DNA from: Bacteroidota bacterium
Lineage (GTDB): Bacteria; Bacteroidota; Bacteroidia; JAADEI01
DNA length: 64,000 bases
Reading direction: 5' to 3'
Assembly: GCA_026992635.1 (NCBI GenBank)
Contig: JALWYU010000108.1
Span: 28,072-92,071, forward strand
The notes beneath the pieces were generated by a model that worked only from the letters and a program-made list of their open reading frames with translations, made no database searches and was not told the DNA's origin. Below are positions 39,629 through 55,517 of the stretch, in pieces. Every line of letters begins with the position of its first letter. Positions within the stretch are counted from its first letter, which is position 1. Position numbers and translations under genes: made by a program.

Positions 39629-42301
39629 TTACCCCAGATCCTGACGAACCACCTCCTCAACAAGCGCAGAAACCCACTGCACAACCTCTGAGCCCGACAC
39701 CGAATCCAGCAAATTGTACGTAGCAAACGTAGGGGAGCCCCCCCCTTTCCCCCGAACACGACGGCGCAACCCTTCTACGAGAGCAACCGCCGAATACGGA
39801 CGACGCGCATGAATCACCACCTGACCCGTAAAGCCCTTTTCACGCGCTTCCGAAACCAGTACAATCAACGGAAACTCCTTCTCTTTACGCAAACGAAACA
39901 CCAGCTGACGTAGCCCCTCATAAGGCAGTGCACCACAGGAGAAAATCAATGGATCGTCGGGGCTGAGCCCCTTTGCCAGGCGCTCCCGCTCAATCGCCTC
40001 ATACACCCACTGAACCAGCAAATGAAGCAAATGACTTTTCTCCTTCTCCAGTTCTTTGTTCCTGGTGAGGAGTCGGTCAATCCCCGCAAGGATATCGGGC
40101 GTCTTCAACTGTTCTTTTGCCCTGGATAAAATGTCAATCTGCTGGTGCACCCACTGGTAGGCGGACAGTCCAGCTCGGGCTTCAATTCGGCGCACGCCCG
40201 CCGCCACACCACTCTCCCGAACAATCTTGAAGAGCCCAATCATCCCCGTCGCTGGAACATGCGTACCACCACACAACTCCATAGAAAACGACGGGTCAAA
40301 GGCGACGACCCGCACCCGATCTCCATACTTCTCGCCAAAAAACGCTAAGGCACCACGACGTAACGCCTCCTCCAGTGGAACGTCCCGCTCCTCCTGTAGA
40401 GGTATGTTTTCCTGGATTTTCTGGTTGACCAGCTCTTCTATGCGTGCGATTTCCTCGGGCGTTAGCGCTCGCGGATGCGTGAAATCAAAACGCAAATACG
40501 TTTCATTCAAGAACGAACCACTTTGCCGAACATGCTTACCCAGGATTGTACGCAAGCTGGCATGCAACAGATGGGTTGCCGAGTGATGCTTCATAATTTC
40601 CTGTCTGCGAGGAATATCTACACGAGCGATCACCTCCGAAGAAGAGGGAACCGTCTCCGTCCGAACCAGAATCAAATCGTGATACCGATAGGTGGTCACC
40701 ACACGGTGCGTCGTCTGTGTAGCGGGCTCAATCAACAAGCCGGAGTCCCCCACCTGCCCTCCTCCCTCCGGATAAAACGGGCAGTATTCCAGCGCAATTT
40801 CATAGTAGGTTTTGCCCGAAGCGGTCCGACACTGGCGCCAGCGCAAAACACGCGTAACCACCTCCAGCGTGTCATACCCCACGAAAATCGTCTTCCCATC
40901 ATGCATGATTTGCCAGTCCGTACACGCGCGCTGTTGCGCCTGACGAGCACGTTCCCGCTGCTGCTTCATTCGCTGTTGAAATCCAGCCTCATCAATCGTA
41001 AACCCCTCTTCCCGCGCGAGCAGTGCGGTCAGGTCCGCCGGAAATCCATACGTATCGTACAGCGTGAACACAATGTCTCCGGGAATGACACGCGATACCC
41101 CACTTTCACTCCCCGATTCCTGCTGCGTCCGACGTAAGTAATCCAGATACGTGTAGAAGCGTGCGAGTCCCCGGGCAATCACCCGCAAAAAGTTCCGCTC
41201 CTCTTCGCGAACCACCGACACAACCGTGGACAAATTACGCAAAACCTCCGGAAAAACTTCCCCATAAATCTCAGGCAAAACCGTAACCAGCCGACTGACC
41301 AGCGGATCCTTGTAGCCCAAATACTGATACGCATACCGAACCGCACGACGCAACAACCGACGAATCACATACCCGCGACCCGTATTGGATGGCAACACAC
41401 CATCAGCAATTGCAAAACCAATTGCACGCGTATGGTCTGCCAGCACACGCAACGCCACACGAATTTTTTCCTCCGGATCATCCCAGGAAGTACCCGTAAT
41501 CTCCTCTGCCCGATGAATTATTGGCAGGAGCAAATCCGTTTCATAGGTTTCCCGTTTGCGTTGCATGACCATGGTGAGGCGCTCCAAACCCATGCCCGTA
41601 TCCACAAAATGCTGACTGAGGCGCTCCAGCTTTCCATCAGCACGACGCGTGTACTCAATGAACACAATGTTCCACAGTTCAATGACCTGGGGATGGTTCT
41701 GGTTGATGAGCTGGCGGGCATCCACACGGCTGCGTTCCGCCTCCGTACGCAGGTCAATGTGAATCTCAGTACAGGGTCCACAGGGTCCTTCTTCGCCCAT
41801 CTCCCAGAAGTTATCCTGGGGTGTACCCCATAGAAGATGTCCCTCAGGAACGATTTCCTGCCAGATTCGCCAGCTCTCTTCATCACGCGGTACATCCTTT
41901 GTGCCGGGAAAAACCGTAGCGTACAGCCGATCGGCAGGCAAGCCATACACCTCGGTCAGGAGACGCCACGCCCATTCTATCGCTTCCCGCTTGAAATAAT
42001 CACCAAAGGACCAGTTCCCCAGCATTTCAAAAAAGGTGTGATGGTAGCCATCATGCCCAACCTGCTCCAGATCGTTGTGCTTCCCCGAAACCCGCAAACA
42101 TTTTTGTGTGTTGGCAATTCGGGGATACTCCGCCTCCTTCTGCCCCAGAAAAATTTCCTTAAAGGGATTCATGCCCGCATTCACAAACAGCAACGTGGGA
42201 TCATTGTGCGGAACTAAGGGAGCAGAGGGGATAATCCGATGGTCCCGTTCCCGAAAAAAATCCAGGAATGCCTGACGAATTGCCTGAGCTGTCCATTCCA
42301 T
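39629..42301 (-). CDS. alaS: alanine--tRNA ligase
   Basis: Full-length AlaRS (N-terminal FLDFF...HNDPTLLFVNAGM, editing domain HSATHLL...CGGTH, C-terminal DHHA1-like region). Confidence 0.95.
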   Translation of the reverse strand: MEWTAQAIRQAFLDFFRERDHRIIPSAPLVPHNDPTLLFVNAGMNPFKEIFLGQKEAEYPRIANTQKCLRVSGKHNDLEQVGHDGYHHTFFEMLGNWSFGDYFKREAIEWAWRLLTEVYGLPADRLYATVFPGTKDVPRDEESWRIWQEIVPEGHLLWGTPQDNFWEMGEEGPCGPCTEIHIDLRTEAERSRVDARQLINQNHPQVIELWNIVFIEYTRRADGKLERLSQHFVDTGMGLERLTMVMQRKRETYETDLLLPIIHRAEEITGTSWDDPEEKIRVALRVLADHTRAIGFAIADGVLPSNTGRGYVIRRLLRRAVRYAYQYLGYKDPLVSRLVTVLPEIYGEVFPEVLRNLSTVVSVVREEERNFLRVIARGLARFYTYLDYLRRTQQESGSESGVSRVIPGDIVFTLYDTYGFPADLTALLAREEGFTIDEAGFQQRMKQQRERARQAQQRACTDWQIMHDGKTIFVGYDTLEVVTRVLRWRQCRTASGKTYYEIALEYCPFYPEGGGQVGDSGLLIEPATQTTHRVVTTYRYHDLILVRTETVPSSSEVIARVDIPRRQEIMKHHSATHLLHASLRTILGKHVRQSGSFLNETYLRFDFTHPRALTPEEIARIEELVNQKIQENIPLQEERDVPLEEALRRGALAFFGEKYGDRVRVVAFDPSFSMELCGGTHVPATGMIGLFKIVRESGVAAGVRRIEARAGLSAYQWVHQQIDILSRAKEQLKTPDILAGIDRLLTRNKELEKEKSHLLHLLVQWVYEAIERERLAKGLSPDDPLIFSCGALPYEGLRQLVFRLRKEKEFPLIVLVSEAREKGFTGQVVIHARRPYSAVALVEGLRRRVRGKGGGSPTFATYNLLDSVSGSEVVQWVSALVEEVVRQDLG

Positions 42302-44331: not shown

Positions 44332-44415
44332 GCCCGGGTGGCGGAACTGGTAGACGCGGCGTCTTGAGGGGGCGCTGCCCGTCAGGGCGTGCGGGTTCGA
44401 CTCCCGCCCCGGGCA
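44332..44415 (+). tRNA. tRNA-Leu (anticodon GAG), class II with long variable arm
   Basis: Manual fold: acceptor GCCCGGG/CCCGGGC, anticodon stem GCGTC/GGCGC with loop TTGAGGG, 15-nt variable arm, T-arm GCGGG-TTCGACT-CCCGC. Confidence 0.8.
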
Positions 44416-44447
44416 CACCCACCTTATTCACCGCGACATCAATCAGT

Positions 44448-44521
44448 GGGGCCGTAGCTCAGCTGGCTAGAGCGTCGGCTTTGCAAGCCGGAGGTCACGG
44501 GTTCGAATCCCGTCGGCTCCA
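44448..44521 (+). tRNA. tRNA-Ala (anticodon TGC) with the G3:U70 identity pair
   Basis: Manual fold: acceptor GGGGCCG/CGGCTCC (G3-U70), anticodon loop TTTGCAA, T-arm ACGGG-TTCGAAT-CCCGT, discriminator A. Confidence 0.85.
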
Positions 44522-44830
44522 CATCATGCCTCTTGCACAGGATGCCAGAACTATAGCTACTCGCAATTGCGTCAGTTTAGCGCCAGCCCTCCTCAACCAC
44601 CCACCCACTCAAACAATCAGACGAAATCAGAAGACATAACGATAGGCTGGCGTCCGTCAGCGTATAGGAGTCAGTTAAAGCGGTGCCTGAAAGAAAAGGA
44701 GAGGCGCACGAAAAAAACGAAACGCTCAAACAGGAGAAAGCCCCCCCTGAAGAGAAAACGGAAAGCCTGGAGAAACTTTTACGGGAGAAATAGGGTAGAT
44801 TAAGAAATAGAAGTAGAAAATCCGGGTCAA
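44522..44830 (+). repeat. leader repeat R1 (~290 bp, purine-rich noncoding), ~88% identical to R2
   Basis: Direct alignment with 45951..46245. Key strings such as ttgcacaggatgcc, gaactatagctac, caattgcgtcagtttag, aacaatcagacgaaat and cttttacgggagaaatagggtagatta are shared. Confidence 0.75.
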
Positions 44831-45469
44831 ATGATAGGAATCAATCCCGTCATGTCAAGCATCATTGTAATTGCCCCTGCCGTGAAGCGTCTTCCGGAAA
44901 AGGGACCCATATCCACTCCTTTGCCTGAGTTAATCAGCTACCTGCTAAAAGAATATCGGCAGTTGTCCTCTTTTGAAGAAAAGAAAAAGTTCATTGAGAG
45001 GCAAACAGCCCAATTCACCATGGCGCTATTTGATTACTTCATGGAAGAGTTGAAGAAAATCGATCCCGGCAAGTTCAAAGCAGATCTGCAAAAGGCACTT
45101 CCTGCCATTGAACGGATTCTGCAAAGTGAGATCCCTGACGTTGAGCTCGTTCAGGAAATCGTTGAATTCCTGGATATCTTACTGAGCATCCGGGAGGAGA
45201 TGGCAAGACAGGCTGAACAATATCCGGAACTCGCGGAAGAGTTTTTTGAGCATTACATGCGTTTTGTCCTTGCCCTGATCCTATCGGTTGAGTCATATAG
45301 GATGGACAAAAATCCAGAAGACCTGCAGGTCCTTGAATATTTCTATGACGATTCCGATGTTGCCCTGGACAGGTTTATGTTGAAGGAATATCTGGATGCA
45401 GTTGGAGAGCTGGTTAAGACGCTCTCAAAGTATGAAAGAAAAGACGATGAACGGATCCAACCCCTGTGA
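44831..45469 (+). CDS. cassette protein A1: ~212-aa all-helical hypothetical protein (antitoxin position)
   Basis: Homologous to A2 over ~170 aa (…K.KFI…F…F.F……………LK..LP…..LQSEIP.PELV…Y.LL.FIL…EIMERAEQYPE.AE.F…YI.F.L…T.Y……P..LQVLE.F…D.ALD..MLKEY.DAV…). No recognisable catalytic motif. Confidence 0.6.
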   Translation: MIGINPVMSSIIVIAPAVKRLPEKGPISTPLPELISYLLKEYRQLSSFEEKKKFIERQTAQFTMALFDYFMEELKKIDPGKFKADLQKALPAIERILQSEIPDVELVQEIVEFLDILLSIREEMARQAEQYPELAEEFFEHYMRFVLALILSVESYRMDKNPEDLQVLEYFYDDSDVALDRFMLKEYLDAVGELVKTLSKYERKDDERIQPL

Positions 45470-45803
45470 GGAGGTTAAGATTTGTGTGGTTGATAAGAAC
45501 AACTGGGAAGCATATAAGAAGCATGCTTCTGAGGTTGAACAAGCTCTGGACAGGTTTCGGAAAGATGTGCAAACAGGAATAGTCTGGAATAAACTTGTCA
45601 AGTTAAAAGGCATCAGTGAAGCCGGACCATTATACCGATACCGCCACGGCAGAATTCGGCTGATTATAGCCATTATTGTGCAGAAGCAACTCATTTATAT
45701 CGTTGAAGCACTGTATAGGCGAGAAGGCATTTACAGGCGGAGAATGCTGGATCAGATAATCAAGAAAGTCAAAGCCTTAACTGCTACTTTTAGGGAAGAA
45801 TAA
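45396..45803 (+). CDS. cassette protein B1: RelE/ParE-superfamily-like small protein (toxin position)
   Basis: KLKGISEAGPLYRYRHGRIRLIIAIIVQKQLIYIVEALYRREGIY fits the RelE/ParE core pattern (L.G...lyElR.g.yRiiY.i......i.il.i.HR...Y). The ORF overlaps the A1 stop, indicating translational coupling. The real start is probably MKEKTMNG or MNGSNP (about 45432-45447). Confidence 0.55.
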   Translation: MQLESWLRRSQSMKEKTMNGSNPCEEVKICVVDKNNWEAYKKHASEVEQALDRFRKDVQTGIVWNKLVKLKGISEAGPLYRYRHGRIRLIIAIIVQKQLIYIVEALYRREGIYRRRMLDQIIKKVKALTATFREE

Positions 45804-45950
45804 TCAACGCATAAACACAAACAGGCAGACAGATTTGTGTAAAGATGTTAGATTCATAATAATATCCCCTGTTTACCCCGAAGTGGACATGCCCGGGAAA
45901 AGTAGGACAGAAGCCGTTTTTAGAGGGGGGCGAATCCCGTCGGCTCCACA

Positions 45951-46245
45951 TCGTGCCTCCTTGCACAGGATGCCTGAACTATAGCTACCCCCAATTGCGT
46001 CAGTTTAGAGCCAGCCTCCTCAACCACCCACCCAAACAATCAGACGAAATTCAGAGGACATAGCGATCGGTTGGCGTCCGTCAGCGTATAGGGATCAGCT
46101 AAAACGGTGCCTGGAAGAAAAAGAGAGGCGCACGAAAGAAAACGAAAGCCTCAGACAAGAAAAAGCTCCCTTGAAGAGAAAACGGAAGTCCTGAAGAAAC
46201 TTTTACGGGAGAAATAGGGTAGATTAAAGTAGAAACGCTGGAGCA
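45951..46245 (+). repeat. leader repeat R2 (copy of R1)
   Basis: See R1. The few indels relative to R1 are not codon-preserving, so the region is noncoding. Confidence 0.75.
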
Positions 46246-46920
46246 ATGCTCATAGACGGTCAACTCACGCACACATTCCTGGTGCTTGCATCCAATTTCA
46301 CCTCAAAATCCGTGAGGAAGTTTCCGGCAATTTCCAGATTTATTCGTGTTGAAGATGAAATCACAGAAGAAGAGTTCATAGATGTGCTCAGGGAGCTGCT
46401 CGACAAGTATCGTCAATGCCCTAACCTGGAGGCAAAACAGAAGTTTATTAAGGATAATGCCGGAAAGTTTGCGCTCTTTCTGTTCAGGTTCTTTAAAAGG
46501 AAACTGGAAAGGGTGGACCTGGATCAGTTTGCTGATAAATTAAAGCAGGTGTTACCAGTTTTAAAACAGCTTATGCAAAGTGAAATCCCTGAGCCCGAAC
46601 TTGTTGAAGATATTTATGATCTTCTCGGCTTTATTCTGAAAAATCGTAAAGAAATAATGGAACGTGCAGAGCAGTATCCGGAAAGAGCAGAATTTTTCGT
46701 TAACAGTTATATAGAGTTCCTCCTGTCAATGGCTTTGACCACTGAAGCTTACTCTATCACACGCAATCCCGACGAATTGCAGGTTCTTGAATCGTTCCTG
46801 AACATGGCTGACTACGCGCTTGATGAACTTATGCTGAAGGAATATATGGATGCAGTTGTTCAGCTGGCTGAGGAGGTTGTAAAAAAAGAAGATGATAGCA
46901 AGAATGGTTCGCAGGTATGA
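46246..46920 (+). CDS. cassette protein A2: ~224-aa all-helical hypothetical protein, paralog of A1
   Basis: Alignable with A1 (about 35-40% identity by eye). AT-rich codon usage. Confidence 0.6.
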   Translation: MLIDGQLTHTFLVLASNFTSKSVRKFPAISRFIRVEDEITEEEFIDVLRELLDKYRQCPNLEAKQKFIKDNAGKFALFLFRFFKRKLERVDLDQFADKLKQVLPVLKQLMQSEIPEPELVEDIYDLLGFILKNRKEIMERAEQYPERAEFFVNSYIEFLLSMALTTEAYSITRNPDELQVLESFLNMADYALDELMLKEYMDAVVQLAEEVVKKEDDSKNGSQV

Positions 46921-47182
46921 AATAAAGTGCTACAGGCGCGAGATATGGAGTGCCTCCAAGAAGCATGGAAAAGAGGTTGATAAAGCGATTCAGAAGCTTA
47001 AAGCGGAATTAGACACGATTGGAGTGGCTGGGCTGATCAAAACGAACAAATTATTTCTGGTCATAAAATCAGATTTCAGCGAGTTTTACATTATTGATGC
47101 CGAACTCAGACAGGATGATACTTATGAACGTATTCGGGAGCGCTTGCTGAGAAGGATAAAATCACTGCTTCGCAGCTTATAA
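46892..47182 (+). CDS. cassette protein B2: small protein, diverged paralog of B1 (RelE/ParE-like)
   Basis: YEIKCYRREIWSASKKHGKEVDKAIQKLKAELDTIG aligns with B1 VKICVVDKNNWEAYKKHASEVEQALDRFRKDVQTG. The ORF overlaps the A2 stop by 29 nt. Confidence 0.5.
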   Translation: MIARMVRRYEIKCYRREIWSASKKHGKEVDKAIQKLKAELDTIGVAGLIKTNKLFLVIKSDFSEFYIIDAELRQDDTYERIRERLLRRIKSLLRSL

Positions 47183-47564
47183 AGGCAAGGGCCGCTTTGA
47201 GCGGTGTGCAATCGTTATTGTGTGGCATAAAGTCAGTACCTAAAGGATAAAGCACTCTGAGTTGTGCTTAGTTTACCCCGAGATGGACACGCCCGGAGAA
47301 GTAGAGCATAAGCCGTTTCCAGGAGCGGGTTCGCTCTCCCCCAAAACCGGAGCTTTCTCTTTTTGCGCATAATAGAGAAGCACGCGATACACTGGAAGTG
47401 GGACTCAACAGGGTCTTGGACACTCTTTGGCACCTACGTCTGCCTAATGGAGCACACCCTATGGCTTCGCAACCGCTGGCTATCCATTGACTTGTGTACC
47501 GCCCGTGGACTTTCGGAACCAAAATCCTCAGCCATCACACAACACGCCAAATGCCAGGCGCCAA

Positions 47565-53972: not shown

Positions 53973-55517
53973 TTACCCCTTCACTACAGCCAGCGGACGT
54001 AGCCGTGCCACCTTCTTCGCTATACCTGCCTGATGGACGACGTCCACCACCTGATTCACATCCTTATAGGCAAAAGGCGCTTCCTCAGTTACGCCCCGCT
54101 TAGAATGGGCATAGACCAGAATTCCCTGTCGCCGCAATTGTTCCTTGAGCTGGTCGGCAGTGATGGATTTTCTTGCCTGGCGCCGGGATAACTGCCTGCC
54201 CGCACCATGACAGGTCGTACCAAAGGTCTGCTGGATGCTCCCTTCCGTCCCTGCTAAGACATAGGACCACGTGCCCATACTGCCGGGAATCAAAACGGGC
54301 TGACCTACACCCCGATAAGCCCCGGGAATCTCCGGATGACCAGGGGGAAAAGCCCGCGTCGCCCCCTTCCGATGAACCAGCACACGCAGGCGTTTGCCCC
54401 GAATCGTGTATTCCTCAATCTTGGCGATGTTATGCGCCACATCGTACAGGATACGAAGCCCCCCTCCTTCCTTGCCAAAAATGCGCTTCCACGCTTGCCG
54501 GATTAAATGTGTGATGACCTGGCGATTGGCAAACGCAAAATTGGCTGCCGCCTTCATTGCCGACAGATAACGCTGACCCTCCGGCGATTGAATCGGTGCA
54601 CACGCCAGCTCCCGATCCGGCAGGTCAATGCCCCAGCGCTTCAAATTTTGAAGCATCAGCCGGATATAGTCCGTGGCAACCTGATGACCCAGCCCGCGAG
54701 AACCCGTATGAATCAAAATAACCACCTGTCCATCAAACAAGCCAAACGCTTCCGCCGTCTCCAAATCATAAATTTTATCCACATACTGGATTTCCACAAA
54801 ATGGTTGCCCGAACCCATCGTTCCCAGCTGATCCGAACCTCGCTCCTTGGCATGACGAGAAACTTCCTCAGGCTGCGCCCCTTCAATTTTTCCCGTTGAC
54901 TCCAGATAGGGTAGATCCTCTGGCAAACCCATATCCTGCTCAACCGCCCAATGCGCACCCCGCTCTAAGACGCGATCCAAACTCCGACGGTCTAAGCGAA
55001 CCTGACCGCCACGTCCAACACCCGCCGGAACACGCCGAAAGATCTCCTCCGCCAACTTAGCAATGCGCCCTTCCACTTCTTTGAGGGGCAAAGAAGAAGT
55101 CAACAGCCGCACGCCACAATTGATATCATAGCCGATACCCCCAGGAGAAACTACTCCCTCCTCCCAGGAAACCGCCGCCACACCCCCAATGGGAAACCCA
55201 TACCCCTCATGAATATCGGGCATGGCAATGGCATACTGGAGAATCCCGGGGAGCGTCGCCACATTTACCAGCTGGTGAAGGGCACGGTCCTTGCGAATCT
55301 GGTCAAGCATTTCAGGGGAAGCATAGACACGGGCTGGAACACGCATGTCTTTCCGGTAATCCTGCGGAATCTCCCACAGATAAGGCTGGATAGGCTTTAA
55401 CGGAGGACTATTCCCGCTCATTGACCGCATTTTTTTCAGAAGGCATGGCTTTCTTCCGGGGGACCGGCACAACCCAACTGTTCGGAAACCCAAAGACAAA
55501 AACCATGCCAGAAACAA
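53973..55517 (-). CDS. rtcB: RNA-splicing ligase RtcB
   Basis: RtcB signature regions, including GHQVATDY, HNIAKIEEY, HRKGATRAF and TTCHGAGRQLSR. The likely start is the internal MRSMSGNSPPLKPIQPYLWEI (about 55427); the segment upstream of it in the ORF is a hydrophobic stretch probably not part of RtcB. Confidence 0.88.
   Translation of the reverse strand: MFLAWFLSLGFRTVGLCRSPGRKPCLLKKMRSMSGNSPPLKPIQPYLWEIPQDYRKDMRVPARVYASPEMLDQIRKDRALHQLVNVATLPGILQYAIAMPDIHEGYGFPIGGVAAVSWEEGVVSPGGIGYDINCGVRLLTSSLPLKEVEGRIAKLAEEIFRRVPAGVGRGGQVRLDRRSLDRVLERGAHWAVEQDMGLPEDLPYLESTGKIEGAQPEEVSRHAKERGSDQLGTMGSGNHFVEIQYVDKIYDLETAEAFGLFDGQVVILIHTGSRGLGHQVATDYIRLMLQNLKRWGIDLPDRELACAPIQSPEGQRYLSAMKAAANFAFANRQVITHLIRQAWKRIFGKEGGGLRILYDVAHNIAKIEEYTIRGKRLRVLVHRKGATRAFPPGHPEIPGAYRGVGQPVLIPGSMGTWSYVLAGTEGSIQQTFGTTCHGAGRQLSRRQARKSITADQLKEQLRRQGILVYAHSKRGVTEEAPFAYKDVNQVVDVVHQAGIAKKVARLRPLAVVKG

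Follow-up and report, generated by a model that had tools for sequence, protein, structure and literature searches.

Two tandem gene pairs at a tRNA-Ala gene of a Bacteroidota bacterium, with a putative RelE-type toxin and a candidate new antitoxin family

The gene pairs and their overlap

The DNA analysed here is a stretch of 64,000 nt from the Bacteroidota bacterium GCA_026992635.1 (contig JALWYU010000108.1), referred to below as the window; unless a contig is named, coordinates are window positions. Two gene pairs lie side by side in it, each composed of a gene for an acidic protein of about 200 residues (A) and an overlapping gene for a small basic protein (B), and they are considered here as candidate type II toxin-antitoxin (TA) modules. 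The four open reading frames (ORFs) listed in the initial annotation are all present, on the + strand. In the first pair, A1 (44831-45469, +) codes for 212 residues with an acidic isoelectric point (pI) of 4.66; it is predicted to be all-helical and is the putative antitoxin, of a new family. Its partner B1 (45447-45803, +) codes for 118 residues with a basic pI of 9.8 and is a putative ribosome-dependent mRNA endonuclease toxin of the RelE superfamily. The second pair consists of A2 (46246-46920, +; 224 aa, pI 4.77), a paralog of A1 with 43% identity over 171 aa (E=1e-45), and of B2 (46892-47182, +; 96 aa), a basic homolog of the B family that lacks about 19 residues.

The antitoxin-first order, with B overlapping the stop codon of its upstream partner, had been noted from the outset and was borne out: the ATG of B lies 23 nt (unit 1) and 29 nt (unit 2) before the A stop. 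A third locus, found on a metagenome contig (L001) and described below, shows an overlap of 26 nt after correction of a 1-nt frameshift, and in all three loci the B ATG sits inside conserved Asp-Asp (DD) codons of A. The bicistronic, overlapping and antitoxin-first arrangement of type II TA modules is thus found in each of the three (23, 29 and 26 nt). The charge contrast is also that of a type II pair, with a pI of 4.6-4.8 for A as opposed to 9.8 for B, as is the combination in A of a structured domain with a disordered end, through which it would bind the toxin.

The B1 reading frame is open from 45396 and contains another possible ATG at 45432. The ATG at 45447 is preferred over an in-frame GTG at 45486, because a start at the latter would remove strand beta1 of the RelE alignment. 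A GAGGAGG motif occurs near both A/B junctions (45469-45475 and 46870-46876); the unit 2 motif precedes the B2 ATG by 15 nt, and that of unit 1 comes after the B1 ATG, 11 nt ahead of the GTG at 45486.

The B and A proteins

The relationship of the B proteins to RelE was assessed in a set of 11,245 ORFs, comprising all stop-to-stop ORFs of the window and of 84 fetched loci. The RelE profile was seeded with archaeal RelE (aRelE, PDB 1wmi), PDB 2khe and E. coli RelE, the last in agreement with the published residue numbering; a toxin from a Sebaldella plasmid was left out of the seeds, since it had been picked through B1. B1 was the sole significant non-seed match of this three-sequence hidden Markov model (HMM; E=9.8e-6, about 25 bits), and the top non-seed match (E=0.016) of a profile made from the two PDB sequences. 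Its score against the RelE profile was 25.7 bits, whereas none of 5,000 shuffles of B1 exceeded 15.2 bits, and alignment of the B alignment to the RelE alignment with hhalign gave P=6e-4 over 72 collinear columns. PHROG 1213, 'RelE-like toxin', matches B1 at E=0.027, a weak lead. The longest plasmid tblastn match of B1, a non-significant one that covers 64% of the protein, is the annotated RelE/ParE toxin of the Sebaldella plasmid; archaeal RelE 1wmi is among the relatives of this toxin (E=2.6e-6), which is also the best non-family match of the reciprocal B profile. Matches of B1 to Salinibacter phages in tblastn were rejected, being antisense to an annotated gene.

The key positions of RelE could be followed in a joint MAFFT alignment, in which B1 has arginine opposite K54, R61 (R71 of B1) and R81 (R92 of B1) of E. 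coli RelE and tyrosine opposite Y87 (Y97 of B1). The equivalent of K52 is absent from B, and likewise from aRelE. In RelE itself, mutation of R61, R81 or Y87 impairs cleavage (PMC2807027). Residues corresponding to these three active-site positions, to which K52 and K54 are auxiliary, are therefore all found in B1. The RelE-like character that the initial annotation had proposed for B1 agrees with both the profile match and the retained equivalents of R61, R81 and Y87, and on sequence grounds B1 is very probably a highly divergent member of the RelE superfamily. Significant similarity to the superfamily profile was found for B1 only.

The Sebaldella termitidis plasmid pSTERM01 provided an observation of its own. 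A gene annotated as 'hypothetical protein' (contig L082, 474-728, -), located beside a gene for a CopG-family regulator, is RelE-like by our home-made profile (E=0.003), and probably represents an unannotated second RelE/ParE toxin of that plasmid.

B2 presents a different picture. In BLASTP its similarity to B1 is limited to 24 N-terminal residues; a profile built from B1 and the B homolog of the third locus (B_L001) nevertheless retrieves it at E=2e-7 among the 11,245 ORFs, which identifies it as a true B paralog. Its proposed descent from a common ancestor with B1 is thus confirmed, but the RelE core motif of B1 is absent. In the MAFFT alignment B2 lacks the approximately 19 residues (the beta2 region) that hold the K54 and R61 equivalents, and retains only those of R81 and Y87. 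The notion of B2 as a toxin equal to B1 is not supported, as the strand with these two residues is lost, and for the same reason the protein is probably catalytically disabled. The A2/B2 pair probably represents a module in decay, or a remnant that serves as antitoxin only.

The A proteins are the unusual part of the module. An AlphaFold2 model of A1, calculated from a three-sequence alignment, contains eight helices, with a mean predicted local distance difference test score (pLDDT) of 68.8 and a predicted template modelling score (pTM) of 0.63. Residues 30-190 reach a pLDDT of 70-94, both termini are disordered, and residues 194-212 fall below 50. A structured core with disordered ends, here helical in the core, is the usual layout of an antitoxin. 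Searches of Pfam and NCBIfam gave no helix-turn-helix (HTH), ribbon-helix-helix (RHH), Phd, AbrB or Panacea signal, and there was no match to PF13274 in Pfam. Structure searches against the PDB and BFVD returned nothing specific, and PDB sequence searches with the A profile gave no meaningful match; neither in sequence nor in fold, as compared with PDB and BFVD structures, did A resemble RelB, ParD, Phd/YefM, HigA, DinJ, PaaA2, MqsA, BrnA or Panacea/PanA. The early description of A as all-helical is in line with the AlphaFold2 prediction, that of a protein without HTH, RHH or Phd/YefM signature with the Pfam and NCBIfam results, and that of an unusually large protein resembling nothing recognised with library, profile and structure searches, which relate A to no known antitoxin family. 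What remains is an orphan helical protein with the charge, the gene position and the core-plus-floppy-tail layout of an antitoxin.

The family is also extremely rare and restricted to one uncultured lineage. A word-indexed search of 5.8 billion proteins recovered only the window's own proteins and one variant, P0002, that is about 82% identical. A profile search with HMMER, run exhaustively over 1.84 billion cluster representatives, returned the same set, amounting to three variants with A1 and A2 included. No relatives were found in genome, metagenome, viral, plasmid and phage collections; in the genome, metagenome and viral sets this holds for the A profile and for DNA patterns of the noncoding leader that precedes A.

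P0002 is encoded on L001, a 1.4-kb contig from another metagenome than the window. The A gene occupies positions 367-963 of this contig, and a B homolog, B_L001, follows directly downstream (982-1422). Compared with its cluster mate P0007, the A gene of L001 bears a 1-nt deletion at 955-965, either genuine or introduced during assembly, which reduces the product to 198 aa. P0007 is an intact A protein of 213 aa, encoded on a 9,761-nt contig, and ends in DDKRIKPL (cf. DDERIQPL in A1). In B_L001 the K54 position is occupied by Arg, those of R61 and R81 by Lys and that of Y87 by Tyr; an Arg stands beside the Lys at R81. Between A1 and the A of L001, the nonsynonymous divergence (dN) is 0.095 and the synonymous divergence (dS) 0.73 (dN/dS 0.13), and A is on this basis a real protein-coding gene under purifying selection. 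Identity of 75-97% between unit 1 and L001 is confined to a segment that begins about 70 nt before A and extends to around A codon 190, near which the nucleotide identity falls steeply. This boundary suggests that B and the tail of A have been exchanged together, as a module.

The tandem repeat at the tRNA-Ala gene

The pairs had been described as two adjacent paralogous copies, which they are; they are also more than adjacent, each being carried as cargo by one unit of a tandem repeat, about 1.42 kb in period, that starts inside a tRNA-Ala gene, directly after the tRNA-Leu/tRNA-Ala genes. Each unit consists, in order, of a 22-nt copy of the tRNA-Ala 3' end, a purine-rich noncoding leader of about 300 nt, A, B, a non-conserved spacer and a conserved tail of about 60 nt. 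The left edge of unit 1 is the first copy of an exact 22-nt direct repeat, CGAATCCCGTCGGCTCCACATC (44504-44525, +), which forms the 3' end of the tRNA-Ala gene. It is followed by leader 1 (44526-44830, +), which is about 84% identical to leader 2 and not unusually structured. The unit closes with tail 1 (45871-45930, +), noncoding and 79% identical to tail 2. The second, 100% identical copy of the repeat (45931-45952, +) marks the left edge of unit 2, which continues with leader 2 (45953-46245, +) and ends with tail 2 and an 8-nt stretch after it (together 47271-47333, +). These 8 nt, CGGGTTCG (47326-47333), match the T-arm of tRNA-Ala at 44498-44505, exactly two unit lengths away, and represent either a degenerate third attachment (att) copy or a microhomology used in duplication.

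Identity between the two units varies greatly along their length: 100% for the att copy, 84% for the leader, 52% for the A coding sequence, 47% for that of B, 43% for the post-B spacer and 79% for the tail. The junction from B1 through the tail and the att copy into leader 2 is reproduced at 100% identity in an independent Logan assembly of SRR14510437, which breaks only at a repeated 30-nt stretch, as expected of a real repeat.

The conserved noncoding parts gave no indication of a structured RNA, with no Rfam match, folding z-scores not below those of shuffled sequences and, in an alignment of two sequences, no usable covariation. An interpretation of the tail as a decayed tRNA 5' half was rejected, the best ungapped match (20/55) being non-significant, and one of the units as integron cassettes, transposons or miniature inverted-repeat transposable elements was dismissed as there are no flanking inverted repeats. 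Leader 2 contains a purine-rich 21-nt tandem repeat in 2.4 copies (46115-46165); none was reported in leader 1.

The repeat starts in the T-arm of tRNA-Ala(UGC) (44448-44522, +), which was identified by ARAGORN and scores 72.5 bits with Rfam RF00005; directly upstream of it is tRNA-Leu(GAG) (44332-44416). The genes on both sides of the islet, scanned over 35.1-44.3 kb and 47.6-58.9 kb, are housekeeping genes, including one for a protein with a type IX secretion system (T9SS) signal. A gene for RtcB RNA ligase (53973-55517, -) lies about 7 kb downstream, with unrelated genes between. RtcB is able to repair RNA cleaved by ribonuclease toxins, but its proximity to the islet is probably a coincidence. 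Upstream, the gene for alanyl-tRNA synthetase (AlaRS; 39629-42301, -) allows the host to be placed. Its product has its best matches in Thermonema and other Bacteroidota, and among 185,579 species representatives no counterpart exceeds 49% identity (48-49% for the closest representative genome), which indicates that the host belongs to a deep, poorly sampled lineage of the Bacteroidota. The G+C content (GC) of the A-B cassettes is 0.42-0.45, as opposed to 0.54 for the window, and this counts as support for a foreign origin.

The two diverged copies were originally taken as a sign of diversifying selection. This explanation is not supported, as the synonymous sites of A1 and A2 are saturated (third-position identity 34%) and the flanks are 79-84% identical. 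Saturated A-B coding sequences between such similar noncoding flanks argue for mosaic recombination or separate acquisition rather than rapid divergence after a local duplication. The flanks are of recent origin or have been homogenised and the cassettes are anciently diverged, and hence either cassettes or flanks would have been exchanged by recombination. Different segments of the units appear, from these comparisons, to have different histories.

We infer that the islet arose either by two att-type insertions or by a microhomology-mediated tandem duplication followed by cassette replacement. The latter would be a plain segmental duplication of a tRNA-adjacent A-B locus, through unequal exchange between the two CGGGTTCG microhomologies and without any mobility function. 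Later, a distant allele would have taken the place of one A-B cassette, or gene conversion would have acted on the flanks alone. This origin is a serious possibility, if somewhat short of an even chance. It would account for the position of CGGGTTCG at 44498-44505 and again two unit lengths further on, for flanks that are 79-100% identical around saturated coding sequences, and for a distal leader that is specific to this genome. On the other hand, the middle junction reads GGGGGGCG and not CGGGTTCG, the 8-nt match may have occurred by chance, and an extra event, the cassette replacement, is needed to explain coding sequences far older than their flanks. Such a duplication bears on origin only and does not conflict with a TA function of the genes.

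An origin by insertion would make the units integrase-less miniature integrated elements, cis-mobilisable or satellite-like, that entered successively at the tRNA-Ala 3' end with the help of a recombinase supplied in trans and carried A-B as addiction cargo. This too is compatible with a TA function, the mobile element then becoming the primary entity. The exact 22-nt repeat of the tRNA 3' end begins at the T-loop, the classical position of tRNA att sites, and the low-GC cargo, itself divergent, lies between conserved unit ends (leader and tail); CGGGTTCG at 47326-47333 could be the degenerate third att copy. We nonetheless regard it as unlikely. The integrase that tRNA-targeting elements carry within or near them was not found: the units hold only A and B, and no integrase or recombinase gene occurs among the housekeeping genes scanned from about 9 kb upstream to 11 kb downstream. 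Of the tRNA 3'-end direct repeats, two are exact 22-nt copies, but the distal copy to be expected is reduced to the 8-nt match. L001 shares none of the distal leader of unit 1 despite its 82%-identical A, only the last ~70 nt of the leader being kept, so that the leader looks like local host DNA rather than an arm of an element. Finally, no further leader or A copies were found in viral, metagenome and genome collections.

Function and relation to known systems

The observations made on the proteins can be combined into a functional interpretation. What was observed comprises the homologous ORFs, the RelE-profile match, the conserved residues, the complementary charges, the conserved overlap, the purifying selection on A and the repeat anatomy. 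We favour, with moderate confidence, the interpretation that the units encode a type II TA module with a new antitoxin family. By analogy with RelE, B1 would act in the A site of the ribosome, cutting mRNA by means of its conserved arginines and C-terminal tyrosine. A, an acidic helical bundle of about 200 aa with a disordered C-terminal tail, would be translated first and be translationally coupled to B, and would neutralise the basic toxin by direct binding, probably through the tail together with the conserved MLKEY(L/M)D segment. Of the two units, the first looks intact, and the second would be the decaying or antitoxin-only copy; together they form a low-GC islet at the tRNA-Ala 3' end, which would have arisen by one of the routes considered above. 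Toxicity, neutralisation and mode of binding are what we infer from these features.

Several results weigh against this interpretation. One concerns rates of evolution: between unit 1 of the window and L001, A is about 81% identical (dS 0.73) but B just 36% (dS about 2.5). In TA systems it is usually the antitoxin that evolves faster, and the pattern of A and B between genomes is the reverse. A is 2-3 times bigger than the usual RelE/ParE antitoxins (about 80 aa in RelB). It has no detectable DNA-binding domain of the types found in type II antitoxins (RHH, HTH, AbrB, Phd/YefM), and autoregulation is thereby left without an explanation. Curated RelE/ParE models do not recognise the toxin side, as B1, the longer B1 ORF and B2 had no match at E<=10 in Pfam or NCBIfam. 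The PDB sequence-profile searches with B alignments found no RelE, and B_L001 and B2 on their own score nothing against the RelE profile, so that their link to RelE runs through their homology to B1. A single-sequence AlphaFold2 model of B1 has a pLDDT of 48 and is uninterpretable with respect to the beta-alpha-alpha-beta-beta-beta fold of RelE. PADLOC, which covers catalogued anti-phage defence, likewise missed B1 at E<=10 and gave nothing relevant for the module. Lastly, the co-occurrence statistics are weak because only three loci exist.

Part of this evidence could equally be expected if A and B were not a TA pair at all, B then having the RelE fold but some function other than toxicity, or being an already inactivated relic, and A an unrelated, lineage-specific helical protein co-transcribed with it for another reason. 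The much faster divergence of B, the lost catalytic positions of B2, the lack of an antitoxin-like domain in A and the failure of curated families to recognise B would all fit. Yet the ORFs of B1 and B_L001 are intact, with Arg/Lys and tyrosine kept at the key RelE positions, the overlap geometry is preserved in three loci, and the pairing of an acidic with a basic protein is that expected of a TA pair; we therefore judge this alternative decidedly unlikely. A three-component module, in which a small ORF (sORF) of 36 codons in each leader encodes a small regulator or leader peptide and supplies the regulation that A seems to lack, is highly improbable. The two sORFs (44683-44793 and 46107-46217, +) have GTG starts and identical or near-identical ends (MP.RK.EAHE...EEKTE.L.KLLREK), and two compensating 1-nt indels keep the frame open. 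The region is, however, T-poor, and chance alone would be expected to leave frames open there; the two copies are out of frame with each other over the middle third of the peptide, the peptide is of low complexity and rich in Lys and Glu, and the sORF is not intact in L001. A bolder version of the TA interpretation combines three proposals: that A represents the first case of a new antitoxin (or sensor) fold serving RelE-type toxins, that the A core is exchanged separately from the A tail and B, and that the units are integrase-less cassettes homing to the tRNA-Ala 3' end. We consider this combination a long shot; if true, homing 1.4-kb units would be a previously undescribed way to carry and swap TA modules.

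Returning to the favoured interpretation of a type II TA module, its nearest counterpart is RelBE (E. coli RelE and the archaeal aRelE-aRelB complex, PDB 1wmi). As in RelBE, a small basic toxin is encoded behind an overlapping gene for an acidic partner, and B1 is collinear with RelE and keeps equivalents of K54, R61, R81 and Y87. Unlike RelB, to which it is unrelated, A is a helical bundle of about 200 aa rather than 80, without a ribbon-helix-helix domain; B, for its part, has an additional C-terminal helix of about 25 aa, and its divergence puts B1 out of reach of the Pfam and NCBIfam models. HigBA, MqsRA and PaaA2-ParE2 likewise combine a RelE/ParE-fold toxin with an evolutionarily unrelated antitoxin, the RelE fold being in the case of B one predicted from sequence. 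That RelE/ParE toxins acquire unrelated antitoxins by partner swapping is well documented, and such swaps have been mapped by NetFlax (PMC10440598). In contrast to these systems, A fits no known partner family, and its three variants are all that occur among 1.84 billion representatives. Panacea antitoxins (PanA, DUF4065), which neutralise diverse toxins (PMC8832971), resemble A in their mid-sized, largely helical domains without a classical DNA-binding fold, but A has no PF13274 match in Pfam. Judged by its residues and profiles, the toxin side agrees with RelE in profile similarity and catalytic positions but stays below curated-model thresholds, and A falls outside every known antitoxin family.

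The arrangement of the units also has parallels among tRNA-associated and cassette-borne DNA. In tRNA-targeted islets formed by tandem accretion of cis-mobilisable elements (CIMEs), as here, low-GC cargo is organised in tandem units and enclosed by a direct repeat of the tRNA 3' end; the present units differ from these in being without an integrase, only 1.4 kb long, with a degenerate third att copy and a leader not conserved in the one related locus. Small tandem TA cassettes with conserved repeats between them are similarly known from chromosomal integrons, e.g., the RelE/ParE cassettes of the Vibrio superintegron. The units differ in having neither an attC-like inverted repeat nor a visible intI gene, and in their conserved spacer of about 380 nt that includes a tRNA fragment. 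No conserved imperfect inverted repeat was found between the units, whose post-B spacers are 43% identical, and no intI among the neighbouring genes, although no dedicated attC model was run.

The module looks like a rare variant of a familiar TA type rather than a new type of system, and its impact is modest, since the family is extremely rare and the exchange of antitoxins on a known toxin is an established principle. The mosaic of the array represents a small natural example of modular exchange in TA loci, with conserved flanks around ancient cassettes, and with an A core that is conserved and a B that is strongly diverged between genomes. B1 lies beyond the current curated models, and its inclusion could improve the detection of RelE-type toxins in deep-branching Bacteroidota. 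If the proposed function is confirmed, a new and unusually large antitoxin family would join the partner network of RelE/ParE toxins.

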